A DNA stretch of 64,000 nucleotides from positions 1 through 64,000 of the forward strand of contig CDRNVU010000372.1 of assembly GCA_977017645.1 (NCBI GenBank), written 5' to 3'. Below are positions 1-33,589 of this stretch, one piece after another. The translations under genes and the position numbers were made by a program. This DNA is from Torpedo marmorata. Taxonomy: Eukaryota. The notes under the pieces are model-generated. The model did no database searches. It saw nothing but the letters and a program-made list of their open reading frames with translations, and had not been told where the DNA came from. Numbering within the stretch: position 1 is the first letter of the stretch; every line of letters starts with the position of its first letter.

Positions 1-3000
1 CTCACCTACCACCTTAAATGATCCCACTCACCTACCACCTTAAATGATCCCACTCACCTACCCCCTCACATGATCCCACTCGCCTACCCCCTCACATGAT
101 CCCACTCACCTACCCCCTCACATGATCCCACTCGCCTACCCCCTTAAATGATCCCACTCACCTACCCCCTGACATGATCCCACTCACCTACCCCTTAAAT
201 GATCCCACTCACCTACCCCCTGACATGATCCCACTCACCTACCCCCTGACATGATCCCACTCACCTACCCCCTTAAATGATCCCACTCACCTACCCCCTG
301 ACATGATCCCACTCACCTACCACCTTAAATGATCCCACTCACCTACCACCTTAAATGATCCCACTCACCTACCCCCTCACATGATCCCACTCGCCTACCC
401 CCTGACATGATCCCACTCACCTACCCCCTGACATGATCCCACTCACCTACCCCCTGACATGATCCCACTCACCTACCACCTTATATGATCCCACTCACCT
501 ACTCCCTGACATGATCCCACTCACCTACCCCCTGACATGATCCCACTTACCTACCACCTTACATGATCCCACTCACCTACCCCCTGACATGATCCCACTT
601 ACCTACCCCCTGACATGATCCCACTCACCTACCCCCTGACATGATCCCACTTACCTACCCCCTGACATGATCCCACTCACCTACCCCCTGACATGATCCC
701 ACTCACCTTCCCCCTGACATGATCCCACTCACCTACCCCTGACATGATCCCACTCACCTACACCCTTAAATGATCCCACTCACCTACCCCCTGACATGAT
801 CCCACTCACCTACCCCCTGACATGATCCCACTCACCTACCCCCTGACATGATCCCACTCACCTACCCCCTGACATGATTCCACTCACCTACCCCCTTAAA
901 TGATCCCACTCACCTACCCCCTGACATGATCCCACTCACCTACCCCCTGACATGATCCCACTCACCTACCCCCTGACATGATCCCACTCACCTACCCCCT
1001 TAAATGATCCCACTCACCTACCCCCTGACATGATCCCACTCACCTACCCCCTGGCATGATCCCACTCGCCTACCCCCTGACATGATCCCACTCGCCTACC
1101 CCCTGACATGATCCCACTCACCTACCCCCGGACATGATCCCACTCGCCTACCCCCTGACATGATCCCACTCACCTACCCCCTGACATGATCCCACTCACC
1201 TACCCCCTGACATGATCCCACTCACCTACCCCCTGACATGATCCCACTCACCTACCCCCTTAAATGATCCCACTCACCTACCCCCTGACATGATCCCATC
1301 ACCTACCCACTTAAATGATCCCACTCACCTAGCCCCTGACATGATCCCACTCACCTACCCCCTGACATGATCCCATCACCTACCCACTTAAATGATCCCA
1401 CTCACCTACCCCCTGACATGATCCCACTCACCTACCCCCTTAAATGATCCCACTCACCTACCCCCTGACATGATCCCATCACCTACCCCCTGACATGATC
1501 CCACTCACCTACCCCCTTAAATGATCCCACTCACCTACCCCCTTAAATGATCCCACTCACCTACCCCCTGACATGATCCCATCACCTACCCCCTTAAATG
1601 ATCCCACTCACCTACCCCCTGACATGATCCCACTCACCTACCCCCTGACACGATCCCACTCACCTACCCCCTGACATGATCCCACTCACCTACCCCCTGA
1701 CATGATCCCACTCACCTACCCCCTGACATGATCCCACTCACCTACCCCCTGACATGATCCCACTCACCTACCCCCTGACATGATCCCACTCACCTACCAC
1801 CTGACATGATCCCACTCACCTACCCCCTGACATGATCCCACTCACCTACCACCTGACATGATCCCACTCACCTACCCCCTGACATGATCCCACTCACCTA
1901 CCCCCTGACATGATCCCACTCACCTACCCCCTGACATGATCCCACTCACCTACCACCTGACATGATCCCACTCACCTACCCCCTGACATGATCCCACTCA
2001 CCTACCCCCTGACATGATCCCACTCACCTACCACCTGACATGATCCCACTCACCTACCCCCTGACACGATCCCACTCACCTACCACCTGACATGATCCCA
2101 CTCACCTACCACCTGACATGATCCCACTCACCTACCCCCTGACATGATCCCACTCACCTACCCCATGACATGATCCCACTCACCTACCCCCTGACATGAT
2201 CCCACTCACCTATCCCCTGACATGATCCCACTCACCTACCCCCTTACATGATCCCACTCACCTACCCCCTGACATGATCCCACTCACCTACCCCCTGACA
2301 TGATCCCATCACCTACCCCCTTAAATGATCCCACTCACCTACCCCCTGACATGATCCCATCACCTACCCCCTTAAATGATCCCACTCACCTACCACCTTA
2401 CATGATCCCACTCACCTACCCCCTGACATGATCCCACTCACCTACCCCCTGACATGATCCCACTTACCTACCCCCTTAAATGATCCCACTCACCTACCCC
2501 CTGACATGATCCCACTCACCTACCCCCTGACATGACCCCACTCACCTACCCCCTGACATAATCCCACTCACCTACCCCCTGACTTGATCCCATCACCTAC
2601 CCCCTTAAATGATCCCACTCACCTACCCCCTGACATGATCCCACTCACCTACCACCTGACATGATCCCACTCACCTACCCCCTGACATGATCCCACTCAC
2701 CTACCCACTGACATGATCCCACTCACCTACCCCCTGACATGATCCCACTCACCTACCCCCTTAAATGATCCCACTCACCTACCCCCTGACATGATCCCAC
2801 TCACCTACCCCCTTACATGATCCCACTCACCTACCACCTTAAATGATCCCACTCACCTACCCCCTGACATGATCCCACTCACCTACCACCTTAAATGATC
2901 CCACTCACCTACCACCTTAAATGATCCCACTCACCTACCCCCTTACATGATCCCACTCACCTACCCCCTTACATGATCCCACTCACCTACCCCCTGACAT

Positions 3001-6000
3001 GATACCACTCACCTACCCCCTGACATGATCCCACTCACCTACCACCTTAAATGATCCCACTCACCTACCCCCTTACATGATCCCACTCACCTACCCCCTT
3101 ACATGATCCCACTCACCTACCCTCTGACACGATCCTACTCACCTACCCCCTGACATGATCCCACTCACCTACCACCTTAAATGATCCCACTCACCTACCC
3201 CCTGACATGATCCCACTCACCTACCACCTTAAATGATCCCACTTACCTACCCTCTTACATGATCCCACTCACCTACCACCTTAAATGATCCCACTCCCCT
3301 ACCACCTTAAATGATCCCACTCACCTACCCCCTCACATGATCCCACTCACCTACCCCCTTACATGATCCCACTCACCTACCCCCTGACATGATCCCACTC
3401 ACCTACCCCCTTAAATGATCCCACTCACCTACCCCCTGACATGATCCCACTCACCTACCCCCTTAAATGATCCCACTCACCTACCACCTGACATGATCCC
3501 ACTCACCTACCACCTTAAATGATCCCACTCACCTACCCCCTTACATGATCCCATCACCTACCACCTTACATGATCCCACTCACCTACCACCTTAAATGAT
3601 CCCACTCACCTACCCCCTTACATGATCCCATCACCTACCCCCTGACATGATCCCACTCACCTACCCCCTGACATGATCCCATCACCTACCCCCTTAAATG
3701 ATCCCACTCACCTACCCCCTGACATGATCCCACTCACCTACCCCCTGACATGATCCCACTCACCTACCACCTTAAATGATCCCACTCACCTACCCCCTGA
3801 CATGATCCTACTCACCTACCACATGACATGATCCCACTCACCTACCACCTGACATGATCCCACTCACCTACCCCCTGACATGATCCCACTCACCTACCCC
3901 CTGACATGATCCCACTCACCTACCCCCTGACATGATCCCACTCACCTACCCCTTGACATGATCCCACTCACCTACCCCCTTACATGATCCCACTCACCTA
4001 CCCCCTGACATGATCCCACTCACCTACCCCCTGACATGATCCCACTCACCTACCCCCTGACATGATCCCACTCACCTACCCCCTTACATGATCCCACTCA
4101 CCTACCACCTTAAATGATCCCACTCACCTACCACGTTAAATGATCCCACTCACCTACCCCCTCACATGATTCCACTCACCTACCCCCTCACCTGATCCCA
4201 CTCACCTACCCCCTGACATGATCCCACTCACCTACCCCCTGACATGATCCCACTCACCTACCCCCTTAAATGATCCCACTCACCTACGCCCTGACATGAT
4301 CCCACTCACCTACCCCCTGACATGATCCCACTCACCTACCCCCTGACATGATCCCACTCACCTACCCCCTTAAATGATCCCACTCACCTACCCCCTGACA
4401 TGATCCCACTCACCTACCCCCTGACATGATCCCACTCACCTACCCCCTTACATGATCCCACTCACCTACCCCCTGACATGATCCCACTCACCTACCCCCT
4501 AACATGATCCCACTCACCTACCCCCTGACATGATCCCACTCACCTACCCCCTGACATGATCCCACTCACCTACCACCTGACATGATCCCACTCACCTACC
4601 CCCTTAAATGATCCCACTCACCTACCCCCTGACATGATCCCACTCACCTACCCCCTGACATGATCCCACTCACCTACCCCCTTACATGATCCCACTCACC
4701 TACCCCCTTAAATGATCCCACTCACCTACCCCCTTAAATGATCCCACTCACCTACCCCCTGACATGATCCCACTCACCTACCCCCTTAAATGATCCCACT
4801 CACCTACCCCCTGACATGATCCCACTCACCTACCCCCTGACATGATCCCACTCACCTACCCCCTGACATGATCCCACTCACCTACCCCCTGACATGATCC
4901 CACTCACCTACCCCCTGACATGATCCCACTCACCTACCCCCTTAAATGATCCCACTCACCTACCCCCTTAAATGATCCCACTCACCTACCCCCTGACATG
5001 ATCCCACTCACCTACCCCCTTAAATGATCCCACTCACCTACCCCCTGACATGATCCCACTCACCTACCACCTGACATGATCCCACTCACCTACCCCCTGA
5101 CATGATCCCACTCACCTACCCCCTGACATGATCCCACTCACCTACCACCTGACATGATCCCACTCACCTACCCCCTGACATGATCCCACTCACCTACCAC
5201 CTGACATGATCCCACTCACCTACCCCCTGACATGATCCCACTCACCTACCCCCTTACATGATCCCACTCACCTACCCCCTGACATGATCCCACTCACCTA
5301 CCCCCTGACATGATCCCACTCACCTACCCCCTGACATGATCCCACTCACCTACCCCCTGACATGATCCCACTCACCTACCCCCTGACATGATCCCACTCA
5401 CCTACCACCTGACATGATCCCACTCACCTACCCCCTTACATGATCCCACTCACCTACCCCCTGACATGATCCCACTCACCTACCCCCTTACATGATCCCA
5501 CTGACCTACCCCGACATGATCCCACTCACCTACCCCCTTACATGATCCCACTCACCTACCCCCTGACATGATCCCACTCACCTACCCCCTTAAATGATCC
5601 CACTCACCTACCCCCTGACATGATCCCACTCACCTACCCCCTTAAATGATCCCACTCACCTACCCCCTGACATGATCCCACTCACCTATCCCCTGACATG
5701 ATCCCACTCACCTACCACCTTACATGATCCCACTCACCTACCACCTTAAATGATCCCACTCACCTACCACCTTAAATGATCCCACTCACCTACCCCCTGA
5801 CATGATCCCTCTCACCTACCCCCTGACATGATCCCACTCACCTACCCCCTGACATGATCCCACTCACCTACCACCTTAAATGATCCCACTCACCTACCCC
5901 CTTACATGATCCTACTCACCTACCCCCTGACATGATCCCACTCACCTACCCTCTGACACGATCCTACTCACCTACCCCCTGACATGATCCCACTCACCTA

Positions 6001-9000
6001 CCACCTTAAATGATCCCACTCACCTACCCCCTGACATGATCCCACTCACCTACCACCTTAAATGATCCCACTTACCTACCCTCTTACATGATCCCACTCA
6101 CCTATCACCTTAAATGATCCCACTCCCCTACCACCTTAAATGATCCCACTCACCTACCCCCTCACATGATCCCACTCACCTACCCCCTTACATGATCCCA
6201 CTCACCTACCCCCTGACATGATCCCACTTAACTACCCCCTTAAATGATCCCACTCACCTACCACCTGACATGATCCCACTCACCTACCACCTTAAATGAT
6301 CCCACTCACCTACCCCCTTACATGATCCCATCACCTACCACCTTACATGATCCCACTCACCTACCACCTTAAATGATCCCACTCAGCTACCCCCTTACAT
6401 GATCCCATCACCTACCCCCTGACATGATCCCACTCACCTACCCCCTGACATGATCCCATCACCTACCCCCTTAAATGATCCCACTCACCTACCCCCTGAC
6501 ATGATCCCACTCACCTACCCCCTGACATGATCCCACTCACCTACCACCTTAAATGATCCCACTCACCTACCCCCTGACATGATCCTACTCACCTACCACA
6601 TGACATGATCCCACTCACCTACCCCCTGACATGATCCCACTCACCTACCCCCTGACATGATCCCACTCACCTACCCCCTGACATGATCCCACTCACCTAC
6701 CCCTTGACATGATCCCACTCACCTACCCCCTGACATGATCCCACTCACCTACCCCCTGACATGATCCCACACACCTACCCCCTGACATGATCCCACTCAC
6801 CTACCCCCTGACATGATCCCACTCACCTACCCCCTGACATGATCCCACTCACCTACCCCTTGACATGATCCCACTCACCTACCCCCTTACATGATCCCAC
6901 TCACCTACCCCCTGACATGATCCCACTCACCTACCCCCTGACATGATCCCACTCACCTACCCCCTGACATGATCCCACTCACCTACCCCCTGACATGATC
7001 CCACTCACCTACCCCTTGACATGATCCCACTCACCTACCCCCTTACATGATCCCACTCACCTACCCCCTGACATGATCCCACTCACCTACCCCCTGACAT
7101 GATCCCACTCACCTACCCCCTGACATGATCCCACTCACCTACCCCCTTACATGATCCCACTCACCTGCCACCTTAAATGATCCCACTCACCTACCACCTT
7201 AAATGATCCCACTCACCTACCCCCTCACATGATTCCACTCACCTACCCCCTCACCTGATCCCACTCACCTACCCCCTGACATGATCCCACTCACCTACCC
7301 CCTGACATGATCCCACTCACCTACCCCCTTAAATGATCCCACTCACCTACCCCCTGACATGATCCCACTCACCTACCCCCTGACATGATCCCACTCACCT
7401 ACCCCCTGACATGATCCCACTCACCTACCCCCTGACATGATCCCACTCACCTACCCCCTGACATGATCCCACTCACCTACCCCCTTAAATGATCCCACTC
7501 ACCTACCCCCTGACATGATCCCACTCACCTACCCCCTGACATGATCCCACTCACCTACCCCCTTACATGATCCCACTCACCTACCCCCTGACATGATCCC
7601 ACTCACCTACCCCCTTAAATGATCCCACTCACCTACCCCCTTAAATGATCCCACTCACCTATCCCCTGACATGATCCCACTCACCCACCCCCTGACATGA
7701 TCCCACTCACCTACCCCCTGACATGATCCCACTCACCTACCCCCTTAAATGATCCCACTCACCTACCCCCTTAAATGATCCCACTCACCTACCCCCTGAC
7801 ATGATCCCACTCACCTACCCCCTGACATGATCCCACTCACCTACCCCCTGACATGATCCCACTCACCTACCCCCTGACATGATCCCACTCACCTACCCCC
7901 TGACATGATCCCACTCACCTACCCCCTGACATGATCCCACTCACCTACCCCCTTAAATGATCCCACTCACCTACCCCCTGACATGATCCCACTCACCTAC
8001 CCCCTGACATGATCCCACTCACCTACCACCTTAAATGATCCCACTCACCTACCCCCTGACATGATCCCACTCACCTACCCCCTGACATGATCCCACTCAC
8101 CTACCCCCTGACATGATCCCACTCACCTACCCACTGACATGATCCCACTCACCTACCACCTGACATGATCCCACTCACCTACCCCCTGACATGATCCCAC
8201 TCACCTACCCCCTTAAATGATCCCACTCACCTACCCCCTGACATGATCCCACTCACCTACCCCCTGACATGATCCCACTCACCTACCCCCTTAAATGATC
8301 CCACTCACCTACCCCCTGACATGATCCCACTCACCTACCCCCTGACATGATCCCACTCACCTACCCCCTGACATGATCCCACTCACCTACCCCCTTAAAT
8401 GATCCCACTCACCTACCCCCTTAAATGATCCCACTCACCTACCCCCTGACATGATCCCACTCACCTACCCCCTGACATGATCCCACTCACCTACCCCCTT
8501 ACATGATCCCACTCACCTACCCCCTGACATGATCCCACTCACCTACCCCCTTAAATGATCCCACTCACCTACCCCCTTAAATGATCCCACTCACCTACCC
8601 CCTGACATGATCCCACTCACCTACCCCCTTAAATGATCCCACTCACCTACCCCCTGAGATGATCCCACTCACCTACCACCTGACATGATCCCACTCACCT
8701 ACCCCCTGACACGATCCCACTCACCTACCCCCTGAGATGATCCCACTCACCTACCACCTGACATGATCCCACTCACCTACCCCCTGACATGATCCCACTC
8801 ACCTACCCCCTGACATGATCCCACTCACCTACCCCCTGACATGATCCCACTCACCTACCCCCTTACATGATCCCACTCACCTACCCTTACATGATCCCAC
8901 TCACCTACCCCCTGACATGATCCCACTCACCTACCCCCTGACATGATCCCACTCACCTACCACCTGACATGATCCCACTCACCTACCCCCTTACATGATC

Positions 9001-10605
9001 CCACTCACCTACCCCCTGACATGATCCCACTCACCTACCCCCTTACATGATCCCACTGACCTACCCCGACATGATCCCACTCACCTACCCCCTGACATGA
9101 TCCCACTCACCTACCCCCTGACATGATCCCACTCACCTACCCCCTTACATGATCCCACTCACCTACCCCCTGACATGATCCCACTCACCTACCCCCTTAA
9201 ATGATCCCACTCACCTACCGCCTGACATGATCCCACTCACCTACCCCCTTAAATGATCCCACTCACCTACCCCCTTACATGATCCCACTCACCTACCCCC
9301 TTACATGATCCCACTCACCTACCCCCTGACATGATCCCACTCACCTACCCCTGACATGATCCCACTCACCTACCACCTGACATGATCCCACTCACCTACC
9401 CCCTTACATGATCCCACTCACCTACCCCCTGACATGATCCCACTCACCTACCCCCTTACATGATCCCACTGACCTACCCCGACATGATCCCACTCACCTA
9501 CCCCGACATGATCCCACTCACCTACCCCCTTACATGATCCCACTCACCTACCCCCTGACATGATCCCACTCACCTACCCCCTTAAATGATCCCACTCACC
9601 TACCCCCTGACATGATCCCACTCACCTACCCCCTTAAATGATCCCACTCACCTACCCCCTTAAATGATCCCACTCACCTACCCCCTTACATGATCCCACT
9701 CACCTACCCCCTGACATGATCCCACTCACCTACCCCCTTAAATGATCCCACTCACCTACCCCCTGACATGATCCCACTCACCTACCCCCTTAAATGATCC
9801 CACTCACCTACCCCCTGACATGATCCCACTCACCTACCCCCTGACATGATCCCACTCACCTACCCACTTACATGATCCCACTCACCTACCCCCTGACATG
9901 ATCCCACTCACCTACCACCTTAAATGATCCCACTCACCTACCACCTTAAATGATCCCACTCACCTACCACCTTAAATGATCCCACTCACCTACCCCCTGA
10001 CATGATCCCTCTCACCTACCCCCTGACATGATCCCACTCACCTACCCCCTGACATGATCCCACTCACCTACCCCCTGACATGATCCCACTCACCTACCCC
10101 CTGACATGATCCCACTCACCTACCACCTGACATGATCCCACTCACCTACCCCCTTAAATGATCCCACTCACCTACCCCGACATGATTCCACTCACCTACC
10201 CCCTGACATGATCCCACTCACCTACCCCCTGACATGATCCCACTCACCTACCCCCTGACATGATCCCACTCACCTACCACCTGACATGATCCCACTCACC
10301 TACCACCTGACATGATCCCACTCACCTACCCCCTTACATGATCCCACTCACCTACCCCCTTACATGATCCCACTCACCTACCCTCTGACATGATCCCACT
10401 CACCTACCACCTTAAATGATCCCACTCACCTACCCCCTTAAATGATCCCACTCACCTACCACCTTAAATGATCCCACTCACCTACCCCCTTAAATGATCC
10501 CACTCACCTACCACCTTAAATGATCCCACTCACCTACCCCCTTAAACGATCCCACTCACCTACCACCTTAAATGATCCCACTCACCTACCCCCTGACATG
10601 ATCCC
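1..10605. repeat. 26-bp tandem satellite/minisatellite, about 400 units, consensus GATCCCACTCACCTACCCCCTGACAT (variant ending CCACCTTAAAT); runs off the left edge
   Basis: ctcacctacc recurs at 1, 27, 53 (period 26); continuous to atccc at 10605; strong C-rich/G-rich strand asymmetry. Confidence 0.99.
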
Positions 10606-10679
10606 TTTGCCACAGGTGCTCTGAGATTACGAAAGGATTACTTAAGGTGGTGAGTGGGGAAAAAGGTTGAGAGCCACTG
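10601..10679. mobile_element. Remaining half of a hAT/Charlie-like MITE whose other arm is replaced by the satellite
   Basis: atccctttgccacaggtgctctgagattacgaaaggattacttaaggtgg...gagccactg matches the reverse complement of the MITE at 10790-10921; followed by ctctggac, resembling the Charlie nTCTAGAn target. Confidence 0.8.
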
Positions 10680-10789
10680 CTCTGGACCTCATTGTTACTG
10701 AAATATTTTGCTTGAGAAAAATTGTCATTGGCCCATTTCTTTTGCAGTTATCAAACTGCACCTAACGAGTCAATTGGGTACGATTAAAA

Positions 10790-10921
10790 CAGTGTTTTTC
10801 AAACTTTTTCTTTCCACTCACATATCACCTTAAGTAATCCCTTACTAATGACAGAGCACCTATGGCATAGGGATTACTTAAGGCGGTATGTGAGCAGAAA
10901 GAAAAAGTTTGAAAACCACTG
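10790..10921. mobile_element. Palindromic 132-bp MITE, hAT/Charlie-like ends
   Basis: cagtgtttttcaaactttttctttccactcacatatcaccttaagtaatccct ... agggattacttaaggcggtatgtgagcagaaagaaaaagtttgaaaaccactg form about 50-bp inverted arms; no clear TSD. Confidence 0.8.
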
Positions 10922-10986
10922 CTCAACCTCCTGTACTATCCATAAATGCCAAAGGACCTCACCTGGGACCCGGCCCGGATAACGTT

Positions 10987-11200
10987 CTTTTTCAATCTTT
11001 TTATTGATTTTATTTTAAAAAATCAATAAATGAAGAAAAGGGAACTAAATTGAAAATACAATATCACATATTAAAATAAAACTTCAAACGGTATAAATTT
11101 GATCCCCCCTCCACTGCAATAGGTGACAATGACAAAAATCCATCAAAAGTGTTATAGATATATAAATTTTAAAAACCTAACCTACTCCAATAAAAAAAAA
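10987..11200 (-). mobile_element. Short L1-like 3' UTR/poly(A) tail fragment
   Basis: T-rich start with ttttattg (AATAAA on the minus strand), AT-rich like the other L1 tails here. Confidence 0.45.
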
Positions 11201-11468
11201 CCAGCTGAGCATTTTATCCTGGATAACTCAGGGGTGGAAGCATTGGAATAGGTGGTGCCGATGGGCCAGCGGGCGGCGACAATCGTGGATATAAATTTGA
11301 CGCTGGGGTTAATACTACTGGCCAATCCTCACTGTCGTTCCAGGTCGCTTTCCTCAAACAACATTGACAAGCCAGACATGGAATTCAGATCATTCTCAGA
11401 TTGTTTCAATGGTCTCATCTTTCCTTGGTCTTGTTTCCGCCTTTGTTTATCCTTATCTACCTTTTCCT
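11201..11468 (-). pseudogene. gag: ERV gag, downstream piece (Pro-rich region with late domains)
   Basis: Minus-strand translation ...DKQRRKQDQGKMRPLKQSENDLNSMSGLSMLFEE / DSEDWPVVLTPASNLYPRLSPPAGPSAPPIPMLPPLSYPG; LYPRL at 11280-11294, PSAPP at 11250-11264; joins 15595 once the L1 is removed. Confidence 0.75.
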
Positions 11469-14400
11469 TTTTTTTTTTTATTTTTTATAATTTTATTTAG
11501 TTTTTAAAATCACAAAATACATAATCAAAAATAGTATATTATTCAAAATACATGTGATACATTTACCACCCCCCCTCCCTCCCTCCCCAACCCTCCCACA
11601 CTATTCTAATAAAGAAAAAAAAAAAAGAAAAATAAGAATATATAAAAATGTTAATTAAAAGAAAAGAAATAGAATGAGAAATAAAGTTAAGAGAGTTAGT
11701 ATGAGGAGAAAACTATTTCAAACTAACTCTATTTATATATTGGAGGTTACTTTTGTCAGCGGTACTAACTTTTAGAGAATTAATTCATACCCATAATTCT
11801 CATGTATGGGCTCCAAATTTTCAAAAAGAAATGATATTTGTCTCGTAAGTTATACGTAATTTTTTCCAGTGGTATACAAGAACGTAACTCTGCATGTAAT
11901 CTATCTAAATTCAAATCTAAGTCTGATTTCCAAGTAATAGCAATACATTTTTTTGAAATTGCTAACACGATTCGTAAAAATTCTATTTGATACATATTTA
12001 ATCTATTTCTAATACTAATTTTTTTAATATCTCCAAACAAAAATATCATAGGATCCATTGGAATCGTAATATTAAAAATTCTATCTAAAAAATCTTTAAC
12101 TTTAGACCAAAAATTTTTAATTTTCAAACATGACCATGTACAATGTACAAAAGAACCTATTTCATCTTTACATCTAAAACACATATCTGACAATGCCGGA
12201 TTGAATTTCTTTAATTTTTTGGGTGTTATATATAATTGATGAAAAAAGTTATACTGTACTAATCTATATCTAACATTAATAATCTTAGTCATACTCAATT
12301 TACACAATTCTTTCCAATGTTGTTCATCTATACTAATATTTAGATCTGATTCCCAATTTAATCTAGATTTATGCAGTCCTACTTTAGGTATCTTTTTCTG
12401 AAATAATTTATACATTTGCGATATAAATTTATTAACATTTCCATTAGTAATTAATAACTCTAACCCATCCTGTCTAGGAGATATTAATTGATTCCCTAAT
12501 TTCTCAACTAAAAATCATTTAACTTGATAATAAGCCAAAATTGTATTATGCATTATTCCAAATTTTTCTTTCAATCTAGAAAAAGTAACAAATTTTCCTG
12601 CCTCAAAACAATCTTTAATCTTCTTAATTCCTTTTTGATACCATAATTTTAAAAATTGATTATCCATAGAAAATGGTAGTAATAAATTCTGATATAATGG
12701 CATATTTAAAGAAATTGATCCTTTTCGCCCTATTTCATTATCTAATTGATTCCAAATCTCTAATAAATGTCTAATAATCGGTGACTTTTTCTTTTTAATC
12801 AATAATAATTTAGAATTCCATTTATAAATAATATCTTCCTTATTTCTTTCTCCTATATTACTTAATTCTATATTAATCCAAGCCGTATTTTTAGTTAAAT
12901 CAAATAGTTCATTTATAAATTTTAATTGTGCTGCCTTATAATAATATTGAAAATTAGGAAGTTGTAATCCACCCATTTCATATTCCCAAGTTAATTTATC
13001 CATACTTACTCTTGCCAATTTTCCTTTCCATAAAAACTTTCTAATAATATTTTTTAAATCTTTAAAAATTTTTTGAGGAATACCAAAAGGTATAGATTGA
13101 AAAAGATATTGAACTCTTGGAAAAATATTCATTTTAATACAATTCACTCTTCCCATTAAAGTTATAGGTAAATCTTTCCAATTATCCAAATCTTTCTTTA
13201 TTTTCTGAAATAAAGGTATGTAGTTTAATTTATATAAATTTTCTAACTTTGTATCCACTTTAACTCCCAAATATTTAATAGCTTCTTTAGCCCATTTAAA
13301 TTTTGTAACTTCTTTACATTTAGTATAGTCTCCTTGAGATAAAGCCATTATCTCACTTTTATCCGAATTTATTTTATATCCAGATATTTCACCATAATCC
13401 CTCAATATTTTATCTAATTGTTGAAGTGATTCAATAGACTTTGTCATATATATTAATACATCATCTGCAAACAAACTAATTTTATGCTCTTCTGCACCTA
13501 CTTTTATCCCATTTATATTCATATCTTTCCTAATCATTTCCGCCAACGGTTCTATTGCCAATACAAATAAAGCAGGTGACAATGGACATCCTTGTCTTGT
13601 TGACCGTGTCAAAGAAAATTTAGATGATATTTGACCATTTGTAATTACTTTAGCTGTAGGTTCCTTATATATAGTTTTAATCCAATTTATAAACGTGTTT
13701 CCAAATCCATATTTCTCTAAAACCTTAAATAAAAACTTCCACTCTAATCTATCAAATGCTTTTTCTGCATCTAATGCTATCACTAACGGTAAATCCTGTT
13801 TCTTTTTTTGTAAATTAATCAAACTTATTAATCTTGCTATATTATCCTTTGAATATCTATTTTTAATAAATCCTGCTTGATCTGGATGTATTAAAAATGG
13901 TAAAAACTTAGCTAATCTATTTGTCAAGATTTTTGCCATTAATTTATAGTCTACATTTAACAATGATATAGGTCTATACGATTCAGTTTTCAATACATCT
14001 CTATCCTTCTTTGGTATAACTGTAATAACAGCATTTAAAAATGTTTTCGGTAATAACTGAGTTTCCTTTATTTGAGTCAATACTTCCATATATATAGGTA
14101 TCAATAAATCTTTAAACTTCTTATAAAACTCTACCGGAAATCCATCATCACCAGGAGATTTACCACTATTCAATGATGATAGAGCCTCACCTACTTCTCT
14201 CATTGTAATTGGTAAATCTAACAAATCTCTATTAAAACTATTTAGTTTGGGCAATGTAATTTTAGATAAAAAATCATCAATTTTTACAACATCTTGACTC
14301 ATTTGTGAAGTATATAAATTTTGATAATATTCTTTAAATGAATTATTTATTTCTTGAGGTTTATAAGTTATTTCTCCATTACTTTTCTTTATAGCATTTA

Positions 14401-15583
14401 TAGTTTTGGAAACTTGTTCTTTCTTTAATTGCCATGCTAAAACTTTATGTGCTCTTTCTCCCAATTCATAATATCTTTGCTTTGTTCTACCAATTAATTT
14501 TTCTATTTTTCGAGTTTGTAATATATTATAATGTAATTTTTTCCCCATTAAACATTGTCTCTTAAAAATTGTTTTATTTCTTTGAAAATCTTTTTCCATA
14601 ACTTCAATCTCCCCCTCCAGTTTTTCTTCTTCTTTCAAGTAATCTTTTCTGATTTTTGCCGAGAAGCTTATTATCAATCCTCTTAAATATGCTTTTAAAG
14701 ATTCCCAAATTATAAACTTATCATCAACTGAATTGTTATTAATTCTTAAAAATTCCTGAATTTCTTTTCTTATATATTCACAGAAATCTTTTCTATTTAA
14801 TAAAGAAGAATCTAATCTCCAATTATATACAGTTTTTTCTTTCTCTGGAATTATACATGTCATTAATAACGGTGAATGGTCCGAAATTATTCTTGCTTTA
14901 TAAGAAATTTGAGTTATTCTATCTTGAATTTGTGAAGATATTAAAAATAAGTCAATCCTCGAGAATGAATTATGTCGAAAGGAATAAAATGAATAATCCT
15001 TTTCTCTAGGGTTTAACTTTCTCCAAATATCTACTAAATTTAAATCATCCATTAAATTAATAATTCTTTTAACTATTTTAGGTCTAACAGATGTTCTAGA
15101 TGTTTTATCCATATTTGCATTAAGACAACAATTAAAATCTCCCCCAATTAAAATATTTTCCTTAGCTTCAGATAAATGTAAAAAAGTATCTTGAATAAAT
15201 TGTTCATCCTCTGGGTTTATAATATATAAATTTTAAAAGGTCCATGTTTCTGAATAAATTTGACAATGCACCATAACAAATCTACCAGCTATATCCGTCA
15301 CTACTGATTGTATTTTAAATGGTAATTTTTTATTGATTAAAATCGCTACTCCTCTCGCTTTAGAATTAAAAGATGAAGCTACTACATGTCCTACCCATTC
15401 TCTCTTCAACTTTTGATGTTCTTTATCAGTCAAATGTGTTTCCTGTAAAAAAGCTATGTCTACTTTTAATTTTTTAATATATGCCAAAGTTTTTTTCCTT
15501 TTAATTGGATTATTAAGCCCATTAACATTAATACTTACAAAATTAATACTTCTAGAATCAACCATAATTAAATTTTGAACATT
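11469..15583 (-). mobile_element. 5'-truncated L1 LINE with complete but disrupted ORF2; 11-bp TSD taccttttcct (11458-11468 / 15584-15594)
   Basis: APE (SINVNGL, FLQETH, SDH), RT (YRPISLLN, DAEKAFD, QGCPLSP, LFADD), C-terminal CFRC...H..WSC; poly(A) tail at the left end. Confidence 0.96.
11780..15565 (-). pseudogene. L1 ORF2 (endonuclease + reverse transcriptase) in three pieces: 15233-15565, 12515-15112, 11780-12415
   Basis: ORF track; frame breaks near 15230 and 12515. Confidence 0.93.
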
Positions 15584-15594
15584 TACCTTTTCCT

Positions 15595-15974
15595 CTTTAT
15601 CCCTTTGTTTTCTTCTGTCCGTCTACCCATTCACACTCCGCCTTCAACGTTTCCCAATTCTTGGACTTTCCATCAACCGCACATACCCCGACCCCTTTCT
15701 GACTTGCATCATCCCTCCAACTGGCCGACATCCACTGTTGTGCCTTCTTTTTCCATTGTGTGATTAGACATTTCCACTCAGGGCCATTCCCTTTCCTCCA
15801 TGTTGTCTGGGTTGCATGATCACAGGCTTCCATATCCCACATTCCCCCCCACTGGTCAAATCTCTTCCCCTAATCGCGTGGTCAGCTGCACACATAATTG
15901 TCTTAATTCTTTCGGAAATTTCAGAAATTCATCACCGGTGAATCTTTCCCTAATTTATCCAGAATTTGCCCCAT
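15595..15974 (-). pseudogene. gag: ERV gag N-terminus (matrix-like), decayed
   Basis: ATG at 15974 gives MGQILDKLGKDSPV (Gly2 myristoylation-type start); later LGEEI*PVGGMWD resembles the class I matrix WPxxG motif; stops and frameshifts present. Confidence 0.7.
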
Positions 15975-16250
15975 GTTCCCTTTATTTCAATTACTCTCTT
16001 AAACTCCCGTCTAAATCGTTTTAATCGTAACTCGGTGAGACTTCAACTCACCGCCCTTATAACACAACAGGACTCGAACCTCCCCTTCCTTCTACTTACA
16101 CCAATCTCTTTTTTTTCTGTAATCAACACCTGGCAGGACTCGAACACACCCTTTTCTACCAGGGCCTTTGTGGGTCTCGTCAAGGTTGTCCGGGTCAGAC
16201 TGGGGCGAGGGCTACACCGTGCCGAGGATAACAGCGAGAGACCAAGGTAA

Positions 16251-16259
16251 TCTTACCTG
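16251..16259 (-). promoter_or_regulatory. Retroviral leader major splice donor CAG|GTAAGA
   Basis: Near-consensus donor lying between the PBS and the gag ATG. Confidence 0.55.
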
Positions 16260-16312
16260 GCGGGCCCATCGGTCTGTCTCCTCAGTCCTGCATTGGCCAC
16301 TTATTCAGCCCG

Positions 16313-16330
16313 ATCCTGCTCGCAGTGACA
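16313..16330 (-). promoter_or_regulatory. Primer binding site, tRNA-Ser-like
   Basis: TGTCACTGCGAGCAGGAT vs recalled tRNA-Ser(CGA) PBS TGGCGCTGTGAGCAGGAT (15/18), 2 nt after an LTR end ...TATCA. Confidence 0.7.
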
Positions 16331-16332
16331 AA

Positions 16333-16520
16333 TGATAAAATTTTCGTGGCTTCCAAACCTTGAACAAATTTCTGGACCTTGTTAAAAGTACCACTTTATT
16401 AGTTTTGCAAAATTTGAGAACTCAGTTAACACAGGGTGCGCTGCTATCGAGAACTCGGGACACCTACACCCCCTCCCCCCCGAGAACTCGGGACAACCCC
16501 CCCACCCCCCCAGTTCCCGA
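16333..16520 (-). mobile_element. Partial ERV 5' LTR (R/U5)
   Basis: Ends in CA before the PBS; minus-strand AATAAA at about 16395-16400; upstream boundary lost at the CR1 fragment. Confidence 0.55.
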
Positions 16521-16990
16521 GACAGCACAGAAACAGGCCCCTCAGCCCAATTCATTCCAACCAAGGTGCCTATCTGAGCCAGTCCCAGTTGTCTGTGTTT
16601 GGACCATGAACCTCTGAACCTTTCCCATCCATGTGCCTGTTTAAATATCACTTCTTGGCCATAATTGTACCCACCTTTGCATCTTCCCCTGGCAGCTCCT
16701 TCCAGATACACACCACCCTCTGTGGATAAAAGTTGCCCCTTAGTTGTCCATGATCTCCCCATCACTGGGGAAAACACCATCACTATTCACTGTTAATTTT
16801 AACCCCTTGAAGGTCACCGTCACCCTCCAACAGTTCAGGGAACGATGTGCAACTCCACGCAGTCCCTCCTCATCACACAAACCCTCCCGGTGACATGACC
16901 AGGACATGTTTACAGCCAGTTCAGCTCCGTGACGTTAACATAAATGCAGTTTGGACAATCACATCCTCCTTGCTGCTTCACTTGTCGCTG
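16521..16990 (-). mobile_element. CR1-type LINE 3' fragment (old)
   Basis: acagcacagaaacaggccc tail; minus frame ...QRVVCIWKELP... matches the CR1 ORF2 C-terminus. Confidence 0.6.
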
Positions 16991-17404
16991 CCTTTGCTGT
17001 CCATTGAATATCTTCCATTTAACTTATACGTTCCCCTCACTCCCTGCCGGACTCGCACCAGCCCGGACCTTTGTGCTGCTCGCCCTCCTCCCCGAAGCCG
17101 CTGATCGCCAAAGGCCGCACTGAGACCCCAGCAGCACAAGCTACGCCCCTGCTGTCAATCAGAGGAGCGGCCCGGGGCAGCATGGGCTTGGGCTTCACAG
17201 AGACATTTCCAGGTTAAATCTGCAACTGGGGAACGGGAAGTGAAGTATTAATTGCAACCGGGAACAAGATGGAACAATGCAGCGAGGAAGGGGTGACAGT
17301 CTGAGCGACAGTCAGGAGGGGGGAGAACAGCAGCCAGTCCAGGGCACCGCTGTGGCTGTTCACTCAATAACACGTGTACCATTTTGCATCCTGTATGTGG
17401 AGTG

Positions 17405-17683: not shown

Positions 17684-18260
17684 GACACCTGAGATGTCCT
17701 CCCTTCTTCAGAAAAGGTGGCTTCCCCTCTATTCAGCTCTCAGCAGCAAAAGGGCTCAGGCCCAAAATGTTTGTAGCCTTTTACTTCATTCTGTGTGACC
17801 TTCTGCAGAAGGCGGCATTAAGCAAAAAGAGAAAAAACTGCAAAGGAACATGTGTTGTCAGAGTCGAAAAGCTACTCAGCTCTGCGTGAGCACCCAGTGC
17901 TAGCATATACATCAAGATGACGAAGGAATGAATAACTTAGCTTCAATCTTGCTTGTGTTCAGTATTCACTCTCTGCTGCACTTTATTTAGACACACCCAC
18001 TGATATATACATCACATCCTATCACATGCCAGTTTAAGGGAATCCTATTGGCTGTCATCAATGTCTATAACAGAAACACCTGAATGGATACATAACATTA
18101 GGTTTGCCTCTGTGACAACAATAAATAAACATTTTGTACAATTGAGGGCATATTTCCCCACATGTTAACACCCCCACTTGCACTCACATTGTTACCTTTT
18201 CAAATCAAAAACACAATAAGGTTCTCTACCTTACATTATGTGAATCTCACTTTTACATAC

Positions 18261-21200
18261 TTAATCTCCAAACATAAATCTGGCAAACTTTGACAACTTA
18301 AACTTCGTTGCAGGTTTTTTTCATCACATCTGCTACCATCTGATCTGTTGGACAATATGCTAGACTTATTTTTCCAATGTTTACACTTCATCTTATAAAA
18401 TGATATTTTATGTCAATGTGCTTACATCTCTGTCGACTTACTGGGTTTTTAGCCAAAGCTATTGTCCCCTGGTTATCTTCATAAACCTTGGGTAGTGGGT
18501 ACTGGCATTTGTCCATACCTTCTAGCAGTTGTGTTAAATGCATACACTCCTGTATGGTTGCAGCTAAAGACATATACTCTGCCTCGCAGGTAGAAAGGGC
18601 AACAGTTGGCTGCTTTTTAGTTTTCCAAGATATTAAAGGACCATTGTCTTTTAGGCTTACACAATACCCAGATGTACTACGTCTATCAGTGATGTCAGCA
18701 GCCCAGTCTGCATCACTGTATGCATGTAGTCCCAGATTGTCCTTATCACATTTCCTGTAACACAATTCTTTGTCACTTGTACCTTTCAGATATCTTAGAA
18801 CGTGTTTAACAGTCATCCACTGTTCTTCTGTTGGTTCAGAGAAATACTGCGATAGTTTGCTTACAACAAAACTTAAATCGGGTCTGGTGCATGTATTCAA
18901 ATAGATTAAGCTGCCTACAGATTCTCTGTATCTTCTGGTATCACTTATCTTTTCTGAATCATCAGAGTAGTTCAACTTCTGCTCACAAGGTGTCACTCTA
19001 GGTTTACAGTCTTTCATGTGAAACCTCTCAAGTATTTTTTTAACATATTTCTCTTGTGACATTTTTACAGATCCATCGCTTTGTTCAAAATCAATGCCAA
19101 GAAAATGTTTCAGTTTTCCCAAGTCTTTCATTTTGAACTTGGCTGTCAACATTTCTTCACCACTCTCAGTGCATTTTCATCACTTGCAGCAATGATTACA
19201 TCATCAACCCAAATTATCATGATCACTTTTTCATTTTCTGTTTCTTTTGTGTATACACAATGATCAGCCGGGTTCTGCACAAAGTTGTTGTCATTCAGAT
19301 AGTCATGTAAAGTCTTGTTCCAGTTTCTGCCAGACTGTTTCAATCCGTACAATGACTTCTCTAGTTTATACACCACTTTTTCAGTTGTGTTGGTTTTCAC
19401 CTCATATCCCTCTGGTTGTTCCAGGTAGATTTCACAGTCTATTGGTGCATGTAGATATGCAGTTTTCACGTCCATCTGATGTAGAATCAGGTTTTCCTGT
19501 GCTGCTTTCTGCATCAGGACTCTGATGCTAGTCAGGTTAGCAGTAGGTGAGAAAGTCTCATCATAGTCCACACCCTCTTTCTGACTGTATCCTTTTGCAA
19601 CATATCTTGCTTTGTACCTGTTAGATCCATCAACATTGTTTTTAAGAGCATACACCCATCTTCCCCCACTGCCTTCTTACCCTCAGGCAGGTTGGTTAAG
19701 GTAAATGTATTATTTTCTCTCAATTGAGTGCATCTCTTCATCCATAGCATTAACCCATTCTTTTGAGTTAGGGGATGTTACAGCATCTGTAAATGTTAGC
19801 GGTACATCACACATTATTCTGTAACAGTAATCAATGTTCATGAGCACCTGATCATCACTCTCTTCTAACACATAATCACTCAGATAACCTGGTTTCTTTC
19901 TCTCTCTGGAAGGGTACCTCCTGTGCTCATGTTTTGTCTCATTTGGTTGTGTTTGATTGTCCTCATCAGGCTTAGCTGCCTGTGACTGGCCCTGACTTTG
20001 TTCTGGACTCACATCAGTATTTTGCCTGGTGTTATAAACACTTCTTGGCACTTCAAAGTCACAATTATCAGGAGACATGTCTGTCTGTGTCTCTTGTTCA
20101 ACATTGTCTTTGGTCACAAATGTAACCAGTCTGTGCTTCTGCACTTTTCCACTGTAAGGATAATAAATCATGTAGGCTGGGCTGTTCTTATCGTACCCCA
20201 CAAAGATACCCCTTTCACACCTTGAATCCAGTTTTCTTTTATCTTGTTTATAGGCGTAACACTCCAACCCAAATCTTTGCATCCTGGAGAGGTTAGGCCT
20301 TCGTCCTGTCAGTAGGAAGTATGGTGTCTGCTTTGTACGGTTGCTAAAACACCTGTTCCTTATTACAGCTGCTGTCTGCACTGCATAAGTCCATAGGTCT
20401 TTTGATAACTCGCTGTCTATAAGCATACACCTCGCCATGTCAAAGAGTGTGCGCCAGTTTCGTTCTGCCGTACCGTTCTGGTGTGGTGAGTATGGCGCTG
20501 AGGTTTCATGTCTGATCCCATTTTTTCTCAGTAGTGTCTGGTAAGCTTTTCCCATAAACTCTGCACCGTTGTCAGATCTAATGCATTTTATTTTACCATA
20601 TGGTGCTGTATCAGCAAAAAAACTTCTCTGTTGCCTGCACTGTGTCACTCTTTTGTTTTAAAAAATACACAAACACTGCACTGGAAAAATCATCAGTGAA
20701 TGATCATGCAAACCTATAGCCATTTCTAGACTCTGGATGTATCGGCCCTGCTATATCTGTGTGTACTAGCTCTAAAGCTGCTTTGGCTCTTACATCAGGG
20801 TCTCTGTTCCTTGTCTGTATAAACTTTCCCTGAATGCACACTTTACAAAATGGAGCAGGTTTGTTTGACTTACCCTTAATAGTCATACCATCAACAACAC
20901 CCTGTAATTTCTGGACATCATCATAGTTGCAATGCCCTAGGATCTCATGCCATTGCTGTATGTCATAGCACCCCTTACATTTATCATCACATTCAACATT
21001 TTTAGTTTGCAAGTAATATAATCCGTTATTCATGTGAATGTTAAACTTCGTACCGTCTCTGTGTATGTGGTAAACCACTTTATATGTGTTGTGGGCTAGG
21101 GATAGGTTTGGACATGCCCTGCTGACTGTCCCAGTGACTCCTCCCACAATCCCCTTGAATAAAGGCCATTGTGCCACAACTCCTCCCCCAGTCCGGGACA

Positions 21201-22510
21201 GATCAGCAGCTCGAATGTAGCACCATTCTATAACCAATAAAAGCCTTTCAGTTCATATACAACTTCCAGTCTTTTGGGAGTCATTGATAGGTGTATCAGT
21301 GTATGAGGACATCTCGGCCCTTTCTGAAGATCACAGTTGCTCCACTTGTAGTAGCTGCTTTCACAGAAAACATATCCTGTGAATATGATGGGACAAACAA
21401 AGCTTTTCTCAGCGTCGTGGTGTGCTGCTGCCCTCTGCTGTCGATCAAGCACACCTCTGCATCTCCTCGGCGCTCTGCGACTCCTCTGCATCTCGTGCCA
21501 TCAGCCAACTCCACGAAGTGTGTCTGGGGCTGGAAATCATCATCAAAGTTTTTAAACTTTGCAATATCCGTGACGATATGCAAAGTTGCTCCGGAATCCA
21601 CCATCAGTCCCTTGTCGTCGATACTGCGCCCTGGCTGGAATGTCCGACCTTCATCACTCGCCCGGAAGGTGTACTCAGTGTCACTCACCTCCTCCAAAAA
21701 CTTTTTCGCGTTGGCTTGCCGCTGTCTCCGTCTGCACGTTGAATCCCGATGTGTGGTGCTTTTACACAAGCTACACCATTGTTTGCGTCGATAGTCTCTG
21801 GCTTTATGCCCCTTTAGTCCACATTTAAAACACACCATGTAAGTGCTGTCGGCTCCACGGTCACTTCTACTTACTGAAGTTGGTAAACCGCGCGCTTTCA
21901 TTACATTGTCATCAGATACTGCTGCGCGCATTTTCTCAGTGTCTTCATAGCTCCTGAGTTTTGTTTTAAAGTCAGCAAAACATATCTCCATTTCACTTTG
22001 TGTGACATGAATAGCAAATGGTTTGTATGACTCTGGCAGCCCTTTCAATATCATTGCTACTAGTAGTCCATCACTTAATTTTTCATCAGCTTTTCTCAAA
22101 GCTGTGATTATTGTCTCAGCACGAATAATGTACTCCGTCACACTTTCACTGCTCGACTTTTGTAATGAAGACAGTTCTGTGTACAAGCCGATAACACGTG
22201 GCTTACCTTTGCCAGCATAATAGTCTCTTAAAATCTGCAGTGCTTTCCGTCCATCGTCGGCAGCGTCTCGCATAACCAGCGACAAACTTTTATCGTCCAG
22301 GAACTGTATTAGCTCTGCGTAGGCCTCGGCATTTTTCTCCTCATCTTCGGCTTCCTCATCAGAGGTCGGCTCATTTAAAATAGTATTTTTAAGCTTAACC
22401 AGTCGAAGATGGCCCAAAAACTTTGTCTCCCAAAGTTCATAGTTTTTCTCGTCTCCGTCAAAGACTAGCCGTGACCAGCGGCCACTCGGCTCAGCGACCC
22501 GTTGGCTCAT
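18261..22510 (-). pseudogene. Copia gag-pol polyprotein, frameshifted
   Basis: CFKCGLKGH knuckle, DSGAT protease, WHEILGH/CKVC and SDNGAEF/QNGTAER integrase, KARYVAKGY/MDVKTAYL/LYGLKQS/WVDD RT, SDADWA/DNQG/KHIDIKYHFIR RNase H. Confidence 0.95.
21066..21298 (+). mobile_element. 233-bp solo LTR nested in Copia pol; 5-bp TSD GTGTA
   Basis: TG...CA ends, AATAAA near 21236, gtgta at 21061-21065 and 21299-21303; removal restores DVLIHRDGTK. Confidence 0.88.
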
Positions 22511-23329
22511 GGTGCTAGCATAGCATGCTAATTCTCACCGGACATGCTGTACGTTGCAACTTCTTCCTCGGCGATAAATGGCTGCACTCGTCTGGGTGAC
22601 TCTGGGCCCATAACCTGTTGTCAGAATCGAAAAGCTACTCAGCTCTGCGTGAGCACCCAGTGCTAGCATATACATCAAGATGACGAAGGAATGAATAACT
22701 TAGCGTCAATCTTGCTTGTGTTCAGTATTCACTCTCTGTGACACTTTATATAGACACACCCACTGATATATACATCACATCCTATCACATGCCAGTTTAA
22801 GGGAATCCTATTGGCTGTCATCAATGTCTATAACAAAAACACCCGAATGGATACTTAACATTAGGTTTGCCTCTGTGACAATAATAAATAAACATTTTGT
22901 ACAATTGAGGGCATATTTCCCCACATGTTAACAGTCTCCTCCGCTTCTCCTTCTCAGACGGGGGTGATCTTCCCGTCCTCTGGTGCCCTGCTCCAGTCCT
23001 CCGCTTCCCCGGAATCTGCAGCCCCTCGTGGCTGCTGCCGGTTAAAAGGCGCTGCCATCTTGGGCGCAGACCCCGCGGTCGCGGGATCTTAAATAAAACC
23101 ACCGTCGGCTCCTTTAACGGGCCGTTCAAAGCCCGTGCGGAACCGATGGCAGTCGACTGGGCGGCTGGACCCTGCGGGAGCGCCGGTTTGTGTGGCACAA
23201 TATCACTACCACATCTAACTCATCATTGCAGCAGAGTCCTAAGGCAACATTTCAGCATAAAAGGGAAGAACATTAATACTTACAACTGGTTTCTCTCCCC
23301 ACCTCTCCTCGGTCCACTGACTCAACCTG

Positions 23330-23745: not shown

Positions 23746-23918
23746 AGCAGTCGGGTGCACCAGGCAGGCAACACAGCCTTCGGGATTCTCACTACAGAGA
23801 ATAGTGTCTGTAAGAGCCGTAGGCTCATTAACTTACCTTTGCTGCGGCGCTCCGATGCCTCGTCGGGTTGTGGAGCGCTCGCGTTGTCTGTGGGCCGTCC
23901 TCGGCCCGTTCTGTGCTC

Positions 23919-24600
23919 TGCGCATGCGCTGGAGTGCCGACGGGCGCATGCGCAGTATGGAGTGACGTCATTGTGCGCGGTGTAGTTTGGGAAATGTAGT
24001 ATGCGCGGTGGAGGGTGCGCAGTGGTATAGGAGCGATGGGGAATGCGCGAATTAGAGAAAAGGAAAAGGAATAAGATGTAGGAGGGTGAGTGAGATCTCC
24101 ATATCTTTATTGACCATTTTATAACGTCTTATACATCGTTTCAGAACATTGAACTGGTTACTTTGTAGTTTGGAATTGTTTAAAGAATCATTTAAAGAAA
24201 CTCATCATACATCGTTTTCAAGAACTGTTTATATTAAAGTCATTGAAGATTACTGCAAGTCACGTGTGTAAATAAAGATTTTGAACATATTGGACTTTGT
24301 TGATAAATTAATTAAAACGCGTCAAAGACAAGTATCTCACTTAGCCTCCAGGTGACTATTGTTGGATCGAAGTCACCACAATATAGTCAATAAAGAGCTG
24401 GCTGTTTGGAACAGAAAATTGAAGGAAAGAAGATAGAATAATCTCTCTGTGCTTTGGACTGATATTTAAAATAAAATGGCGGCCATCTTGAAGATCCCTC
24501 GAGTTGGGGGCAGTTTGTAATCCACATCCATCTGCCATGAATAACAGCCAGAGAGGGATTTAAAGCTTCAAATCTTATAGAAAAGTGTCCTATAAATACG
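23919..24600 (+). promoter_or_regulatory. LTR promoter motifs: NRF1-like GCGCATGCGC x2, CRE TGACGTCA (23963), back-to-back YY1-like aaaatggcggccatcttg (24473), TATAAA (24591)
   Basis: Motif matches in a CpG-rich U3; same motifs in the 3' LTR; function untested. Confidence 0.45.
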
Positions 24601-24839
24601 TTGGAGAAACCATTTTTGGAAATTCAGTGATATTAATGATGGATGTTGTGGTTGAAACTCGTTTGTGGATTGCAGCACATTACAGTCATTTGAAGTGGTA
24701 GGCATAAGTCTGTGGACTCCTTCAGTGTATCTTTAGCAAGTAAGAACACAGATTGGAATTGCTGCCGCTGGTCCATTGGGGACTGTTGATTTGGCTAGTG
24801 TTGTGTATGCTTGAAGGAAAGAGGAACAAGACGAGTAAA

Positions 24840-28565: not shown

Positions 28566-28599
28566 CGTTTTAACTCAGATTATGGAGATAAAAGAGCTT

Positions 28600-28790
28600 T
28601 AAAGAGACATTGTGATTATTATGGATAATTCAACTTCAAGAAACTCCTGGTTACTTGGAAAAATTATTGAGACTTTTCAAGACAAAGAGGACTTGTGCGT
28701 CAAGTGTGAATTAAAGCTAAGACTGGTTTTCTAAACAGACCTATTTAACAAGGTCTGTCTTTTGTTGGAGACAGAGGAACTTTGATAAAT
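28600..28790 (+). pseudogene. BEL/Pao integrase C-terminal remnant (DUF5641-like)
   Basis: VIIMDNSTSRNSWLLGKIIETFQD..GLVRQV..K.KTGFLNRPI. Confidence 0.75.
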
Positions 28791-31834: not shown

Positions 31835-32006
31835 GTTTTTTATTTTAATTTAGAAATACAGCACATTAACAGGCCCTTCCAGCCCACAAGCCCGTGCCGC
31901 CCAAATACCCCAAATAACCTACAACCCCTGTACGTTTTGAAGGGTGGGAGGAAACCGAAGCGCCCAGGGGAAGACCACACAGACACCGGGAGAACGTACA
32001 AACTCC
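31835..32006 (-). mobile_element. V-SINE/HE1-like SINE, interrupted by an L1
   Basis: tgggaggaaaccg and gggagaacgtacaaactcc, shared with the SINEs at 34225 and 44809. Confidence 0.8.
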
Positions 32007-33275: not shown

Positions 33276-33589
33276 CTTACAGCTAAGTGTTAATTTGCTT
33301 CAGTAAACAAGCTGTGTTAAACACAAATGACTATACTTCTAGATTAAACAAAATATTGGAACCACAAAAGAAAATGTTTGATATCATAAAATCATATCTC
33401 GAAAAAGAGTCATGACTTCAAAGTGTAACAACGCAAACGAATGAATCTGCAAAAGATTCTTTTGTAGAAGTGCGATGAATGCAATATTGTTTACAATTGC
33501 ATGGGTATGAAATTAATTCGCTGAATATGTTAAATGGAATCATTTTTTCCTGCAGATGGTGACTCTGTGACTATTTGTAGAAAACAATA

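Follow-up and report, generated by a model that had tools for sequence, protein, structure and literature searches.

Within a 64,000-nucleotide stretch of Torpedo marmorata DNA (hereafter the window; assembly GCA_977017645.1, contig CDRNVU010000372.1, positions 1 to 64,000), positions 11,201 to 16,520 raise the question of whether the 5′ half of an endogenous retrovirus (ERV) is preserved there around an inserted L1 element, and to which class such a retrovirus would belong. An initial annotation, made from the letters and their open reading frames (ORFs), had proposed a true class I retrovirus at this place. Our analysis suggests that the two stretches flanking the L1 (15595-16520 and 11457-11228) very probably derive from one decayed retroviral fragment, comprising long terminal repeat (LTR), leader and gag on the minus strand, and that this retrovirus is likely to have been of class I and epsilon-like. 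The copy is dead and encodes nothing functional now.

LTR remnant, primer site and gag text

Read on the minus strand, the fragment opens with a series of retroviral cis-signals in order and at sensible spacing. The LTR remnant contains AATAAA (16400-16395) and ends in CA (16334-16333), and it is followed, as is characteristic of Retroviridae, by a putative tRNA primer-binding site (PBS), an 18-mer that is 15/18 identical to the 3′ end of human tRNA-Ser-CGA-1-1 (PMC10359600) and, counted by hand, 14/18 identical to that of human Ser-TGA-1-1 (PMC12217144); both are human tRNAs as printed in those papers. At three mismatches, a tRNA-Ser-CGA site occurs once in the 64 kb, and 6 of 100 shuffled sequences yield one, while tRNA and Rfam scans of the window returned no tRNA genes and no Rfam families. 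Beyond a predicted splice donor and the leader lies the Gag start, ATG-GGG-CAA (Met-Gly-Gln), at 15974, 356 nt past the 18-mer, with A at -3 and G at +4. The polyadenylation-type signal, terminal CA, serine-like PBS, donor and Met-Gly-Gln start all lie where the initial annotation had placed them. LTR-like DNA extends for only about 190 bp before the upstream flank begins, and no second copy of the LTR or leader was found in the 64-kb window, which ends inside a satellite.

No gag ORF is visible because the gag text is scattered over several frames with stops, in agreement with the earlier observation that gag is not evident from the ORFs. Glycine is present at position 2 of the Gag start, whereas the relatives described below begin at an inner methionine. 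The matrix remnant with WPxxG that had been proposed can be located (15870-15844), and one of the relatives described below carries WPxGG, although the motif region in the window is itself broken. In the linker, LYPRL (11294-11280) and PSAPP (11264-11250) share one frame; across the six frames of 10606-64000, LYPxL and P[ST]AP each occur five times, and a close pair occurs once, at the gag linker. PPPY was not seen in the window linker.

Relatives of the fragment and continuity across the L1

A HMMER search of 1,835,955,588 representative sequences returned two matches to the matrix-like piece, both unnamed: P0002 (202 amino acids), which matches 15869-15600 at E 1.5e-9, the best single-sequence result, and P0003 (71 amino acids; E 2.4e-4). 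A profile search recovered P0004 (E 2.5e-35) as the sole match among 3131 longer candidates. This is an uncharacterized Scyliorhinus torazame protein of 413 amino acids (NCBI/UniRef), not annotated as viral, which has the same WPxGG-bearing domain as the window and matches the matrix-like piece in tblastn at 1.6e-11, with 38% identity over 79 columns. Searching with P0004 gave P0005 as the sole further protein among 2929 candidates, 78% identical over P0004 residues 306-401. The lineage of the fragment has few recognisable relatives.

We aligned 15 piece-and-frame combinations separately to P0002 and 18 to P0004. On the upstream side of the L1, 15930-15850 falls on P0002 residues 4-30 and 15869-15609 on residues 24-114 (0/1000 shuffles each); on the downstream side, 11451-11344 falls on residues 110-142 (27/1000) and 11336-11241 on residues 145-176 (5/1000), the last a low-complexity alignment that places PSAPP on PSAPP. 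These four pieces, from both sides of the L1, are collinear with P0002; among the remaining combinations, one wrong-frame piece reached 37/1000 shuffles and ten were not significant. With P0004, the two upstream pieces hold (10/500 and 0/500 shuffles). Judged from these alignments, the upstream match is firm and the downstream match modest.

The L1 that separates the two gag pieces can be removed at its target-site duplication, as the initial annotation had held. It has no ORF1; its ORF2 (about 15565 to 11780) keeps to a single frame interrupted by two stops and matches the Pfam domains Exo_endo_phos (endonuclease) and RVT_1 (reverse transcriptase, RT), such that the apurinic/apyrimidinic-type (APE) endonuclease and RT of an L1 ORF2, an A-rich tail and a target-site duplication are all present. 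Aligned over 4119 columns with a second L1 (54197-58242), the insert shows 79% identity, and the homology starts just ahead of ORF2; the insert is therefore 5′-truncated. When the two 121-nt junction windows were shuffled, 15 of 500 trials produced a common 11-mer; what makes the duplication credible is its placement, precisely at the tail and some 10 bp away from where L1 homology begins. The gag carries more lesions per base than the L1, which would fit an ERV older than the L1. The upstream piece, 15595-16520, was also considered as L1 ORF1 and rejected, its best match within the ORF1 side of the second L1 being E 0.077 over 13-20 bp.

Placement of the retrovirus and competing explanations

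The window carries only the N-terminal part of Gag, and the order matrix, capsid, CCHC knuckle is assembled from P0004 and P0005. P0004, located on a 56.5-Mb contig, reads as an open matrix-linker-capsid Gag, its AlphaFold model (predicted local distance difference test, pLDDT, 42.3) showing a helical N-domain that a long linker joins to a C-region, which is likewise helical; unlike the window, it has a capsid-like C-half and neither PSAP nor YPxL. A single zf-CCHC knuckle (7e-8), which is a class I trait, was found in P0005 only, the window being without that region. P0005 also matches Gag_p30 at E 0.063, under the cut-off, and its residues 50-114 match the Gag of murine leukaemia virus (MLV) at E 0.55-0.79 over the same residues as Gag_p30; spacing like that of the major homology region, with proline in place of glutamine, is common to P0005 and P0004. 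When the P0005 model (pLDDT 41.6) was searched against BFVD, a Rhinella marina ERV Gag ranked first, walleye dermal sarcoma virus (WDSV) Gag-Pol third and walleye epidermal hyperplasia virus 2 (WEHV-2) Gag sixth (E 0.078-0.7, 19-21% identity), with a python ERV at rank 16 and none under E 0.001 among the best 50 listed; none of the three leading Gags gave a direct match to the window matrix piece.

The window resembles MLV Gag in its Gly2 start and its PSAP and LYPxL late motifs, MLV itself having PSAP and LYPAL in addition to PPPY, which is essential there (PMC4848597), and P0005 resembles it in the single CCHC knuckle and the Gag_p30-like capsid. Unlike MLV Gag, the window has no matrix match in Pfam or PDB, and the gammaretrovirus clade Jin is reported only from amniotes, whereas the epsilon clade Mu is found in nearly all jawed vertebrates (Xu 2018, PMC6001957). 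The elephant shark has three ERV lineages (CmiERV), of which two are epsilon-like and one is snakehead-like (Han 2015, PMC4422223), with CmiERV II and III representing, as we propose for the fragment, epsilon-like class I ERVs of cartilaginous fish. The epsilon-type CmiERV on scaffold 324, read by eye and hand-translated, shows a layout like that of the window: AATAAA, CA and a PBS come first, CAGGTAAG follows at a distance of about 85 nt, and ahead of capsid there is a stretch with PSAPP; it differs in that PSAPP is followed by a PY motif and in its PBS. We take that PBS to be a glutamine one. In the passages of the CmiERV supplement that were compared by eye, the short motifs taken from the PBS and matrix of the window did not appear.

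On these grounds we consider class I membership, most plausibly epsilon-like, to be likely. The claim of a true class I retrovirus thus stands in part: a retroviral LTR-PBS-leader-gag arrangement is backed by homology, while the class is not proven, since every capsid signal is transitive and falls below threshold and no pol or env was linked.

Several results weigh against the placement or against the retroviral reading as a whole. None of five window pieces matched Pfam at E up to 10; searched by sequence against PDB, the window piece gave one unrelated match (E 1), by profile there were four unrelated PDB matches, and the ESM Atlas returned no usable match. No capsid, pol or env match was obtained in the window, and the serine or threonine of the myristoylation consensus G-X2-3-S/T (PMC8278194) is missing from the Gag start. 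Downstream pieces are not significant against P0004 (163/500 and 136/500 shuffles), and a wrong-frame piece reached 1/500 against the same protein, indicating that such short tests are noisy. Folding of the leader is no better than that of shuffles (z -0.23), with no special structure. As for the relatives, the P0004 model was unmatched in BFVD, PDB and VIA-wide (best Z 4.6), which is not evidence of a new fold (by sequence, P0004 gave two unrelated PDB matches); P0002 residues 1-125 led in the ESM Atlas to Myb-like or hypothetical proteins (best 0.87), which serves as a lead only; and no longer Gag-Pol relative of P0005 was present among 468 candidates. YPxL occurs in neither of the two relatives that cover the linker, and PSAP in one of them (P0002, as PSAPP; P0004 is without it); the late-domain types named by the initial annotation are present in the window and shared in part. 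The capsid signals are sub-threshold and come from models of pLDDT 42. Finally, a Ser PBS together with PSAP also occurs in XtERV-S, a class III element of Xenopus (PMC8278194).

This last point bears on the strongest of the alternatives, namely that the retrovirus belonged to a different clade, either snakehead-retrovirus-like (clade Huo) or class III and ERV-L-like. Both clades also occur in cartilaginous fish and frogs, as illustrated by the snakehead-like CmiERV lineage I (PMC4422223) and by XtERV-S, and no pol was seen in the window fragment. Yet the PBS of XtERV-S is of the Ser(AGA/TGA) and not the CGA-like type, its PSAP lies near the Gag C-terminus, and XtERV-S and foamy Gag have no Cys-His box and no myristoylation signal (PMC8278194), in contrast to the CCHC knuckle of P0005 and the Gly2 of the window. 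A Gag without a Cys-His box, given for ERV-L and foamy class III in Table 2 of the same paper, is thus not what is observed, although the observation was made on P0005 and not on the window. The weak capsid signals all point towards Gag_p30 and epsilon Gag, in comparisons that did not extend to snakehead-like Gag. We regard this alternative as improbable.

Somewhat less probable still is an env-less or otherwise non-autonomous class I derivative that never had capsid, pol and env at this locus. Non-autonomous ERV classes are known in fish (PMC8672886), and capsid, pol, env and a 3′ LTR were not found within the window, the first three as the initial annotation had also reported. However, the ERV text ends at an inserted palindrome, next to a satellite that continues beyond the window edge; no deletion is needed to account for the absence, and the splice donor would fit an env-bearing ancestor. 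A non-retroviral origin (gag from an LTR retrotransposon, whether Ty3/Gypsy-type or other, L1 ORF1 or 5′ UTR, or a host pseudogene in which the motifs arose by chance) is very unlikely: the window pieces have no family-level match, each motif is common when taken alone, and CCHC knuckles also occur in retrotransposons, including the copia element of this window, but no genuine resemblance links 15595-16520 with the ORF1 region of the sister L1, the relatives combine a helical N-domain, a proline-rich and acidic linker, a helical capsid-like region and a single knuckle, and a Gly-started N-terminal matrix with late motifs is, to our knowledge, not a trait of Gypsy, BEL or copia elements.

With an epsilon-like class I retrovirus as the preferred reading, its novelty can be considered. 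The view that such ERVs are sparsely described in cartilaginous fish is too strong in the light of published work, in which, beside the epsilon-like elements of the elephant shark, an envelope survey of anamniotes reports gamma-type-env ERVs in six cartilaginous fishes, three of them with more than 500 copies, as well as gamma-related class I clades (bioRxiv 10.1101/2021.11.23.469661). The ERV types of fish are described as epsilon-like and class III, with Gag domains often undetected (Naville and Volff, PMC4977317; PMC10699275). We found no description of the Gag family of the fragment in the literature; most subscription journals and the repeat databases were outside reach, so that a prior description is possible, and the sequence supplements of the envelope survey may already hold the lineage. 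It is a tentative proposal, which we hold to be doubtful, that the fragment marks a class I lineage in sharks and rays that has diverged deeply and escaped description, combining a matrix that profiles do not recognise, a serine-tRNA primer and a YPxL and PSAP pair.

Later insertions, neighbouring elements and significance

The features of the locus are collected in Table 1. Upstream, the LTR remnant abuts a flank without an informative Pfam match. This flank may be the 3′ end of a CR1-type long interspersed nuclear element (LINE). Within the LTR remnant, a 33-bp tandem pair with G-runs (16448-16511) could represent U3 enhancer repeats. Upstream of the LINE-like flank, 16960-17400 is a GC-rich unique stretch, possibly host DNA or displaced U3, with no match elsewhere in the window.

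Table 1 Features of the ERV fragment and the elements around it.
Feature	Position	Strand	Basis or remark
Flank abutting the LTR remnant	16521..16960	-	No informative Pfam match; weak match to 46372-46428
3′ remnant of 5′ LTR	16333..16520	-	Sequence; identity from position ahead of the PBS
PBS-like 18-mer, tRNA-Ser-like	16330-16313	-	2-nt spacer after CA
Splice-donor consensus CAG/GTAAG, GT at 16256	16252..16259	-	Predicted from sequence; 74 nt past PBS start
Leader	15975..16312	-	Position
gag 5′ piece, matrix-like, interrupted by stops and frame changes	15595..15974	-	Matches P0002, P0003, P0004
L1 target-site duplication, upstream copy	15594-15584	-	11 bp, exact
5′-truncated L1, same orientation as ERV	11469..15583	-	ORFs, Pfam, sister L1 match
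L1 target-site duplication, downstream copy	11468-11458	-	11 bp, exact; A-rich tail beside it
gag linker piece, basic then acidic stretch, then late motifs in another frame	11228..11457	-	Collinear with P0002
Probable second insert, 234 bp, 75% A+T, A-rich end	10984..11217	-	Bracketed by duplicated word
Possible last gag piece, about 50 G+C-rich bases	10925..10973	-	Duplicated word and G+C content
Palindromic CAGTG-ended element, terminates ERV text	10606..10921	.	Repeat analysis
26-bp satellite, 409 copies	1..10605	.	From right arm of second palindromic unit

Downstream, the gag linker is probably followed by a second insert, bracketed by a duplicated word (11227-11218 and 10983-10974) that agrees at 9/10 positions and is weak alone (13/200 shuffles). 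This insert is presumably a retroposon 3′ end. The element probably extends past 11201 to about 10925, although the last candidate gag piece has no match to P0002 or P0004. A capsid start in 10983-10925 or 10925-10606 was considered and rejected as unproven, there being no match to P0004.

The ERV text ends at a palindromic element with arms at 10790-10842 and 10869-10921 that are 91% complementary, and a second unit begins at 10679. We assume it to be a hAT-type miniature inverted-repeat transposable element. The satellite grew out of this palindromic, DNA-transposon-like insert: the units at its start can be aligned to the first palindrome's right arm (0/500 shuffles; arms 10581-10665 and 10810-10894), and the array spans at least 10.6 kb and runs off the window edge. 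The initial annotation had set the satellite where capsid, pol and env would be; the position is right, but interruption is as likely as deletion because the satellite belongs to the inserted palindromic element. The missing capsid, pol and env may sit beyond the array.

Other mobile elements populate the window. A full-length-looking copia element at 17853-22933 (minus strand) has 318-bp LTRs that are 96.9% identical and carries gag, protease, integrase and RT in copia order, broken up among several ORFs; its five-base flanks do not match. At 23809-30089 (plus strand) lies a very young LTR element with 1.1-kb repeats that are 99.6% identical, a SAP domain and DUF1759 (BEL/Pao-type gag); it has no RT, RNase H or integrase match, long, charged, coiled-coil-looking ORFs take the pol position (26695-28565), and a related piece is found at 62881-63810 (minus strand). 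A Gypsy-type pol at 51376-54200 (minus strand), in the order RT, RNase H, integrase, adjoins the tail of an L1 at 54197, namely the longer sister L1 at 54197-59941 (minus strand), which includes ORF1-side ORFs; further L1 pieces are located at 32006-33278, 47030-49362 and 63805-64000. The GC-rich stretch at 41700-43560 (plus strand) shows a weak GIY-YIG match (E 0.009) and, by eye, RT-like text. We take it to be probably a decayed Penelope-like element.

A plausible history begins with the entry of a class I, most likely epsilon-like, retrovirus into the germ line of a cartilaginous fish. By analogy with established retrovirology, its reverse transcription would have been primed on a serine tRNA, the leader donor would have served to splice env, and Gag would have been translated from the ATG at 15974. 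Since PT/SAP recruits TSG101 and YPXnL recruits ALIX (PMC12789967), the PSAP and YPxL motifs between matrix and capsid would have allowed budding via the endosomal sorting complexes required for transport (ESCRT). The copy would subsequently have decayed and received later insertions: a 5′-truncated L1 within gag and, probably, another short piece of a retroposon, as well as a palindromic DNA-transposon-like element, one arm of which grew into the satellite, with a LINE piece replacing or displacing most of U3. Under the doubtful reading of an undescribed lineage, catshark could harbour a young relative that still bears pol and env, and the rest of this copy could lie beyond the satellite.

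The known picture is unchanged, as class I ERVs in cartilaginous fishes and PSAP and YPxL budding motifs have already been published. The fragment extends the record of cartilaginous-fish retroviruses, in which surveys built on pol or env miss gag-only relics, by one locus and a small Gag family without annotation (four relatives found, P0002 to P0005), and it supplies matrix-domain queries for its lineage. The locus is also an example of nesting, with ERV, L1, DNA-transposon-like palindrome and satellite, the last born from a palindrome arm. If both the divergent lineage and its dual late motifs are real, dual entry into the ESCRT pathway would date back to the base of jawed vertebrates.

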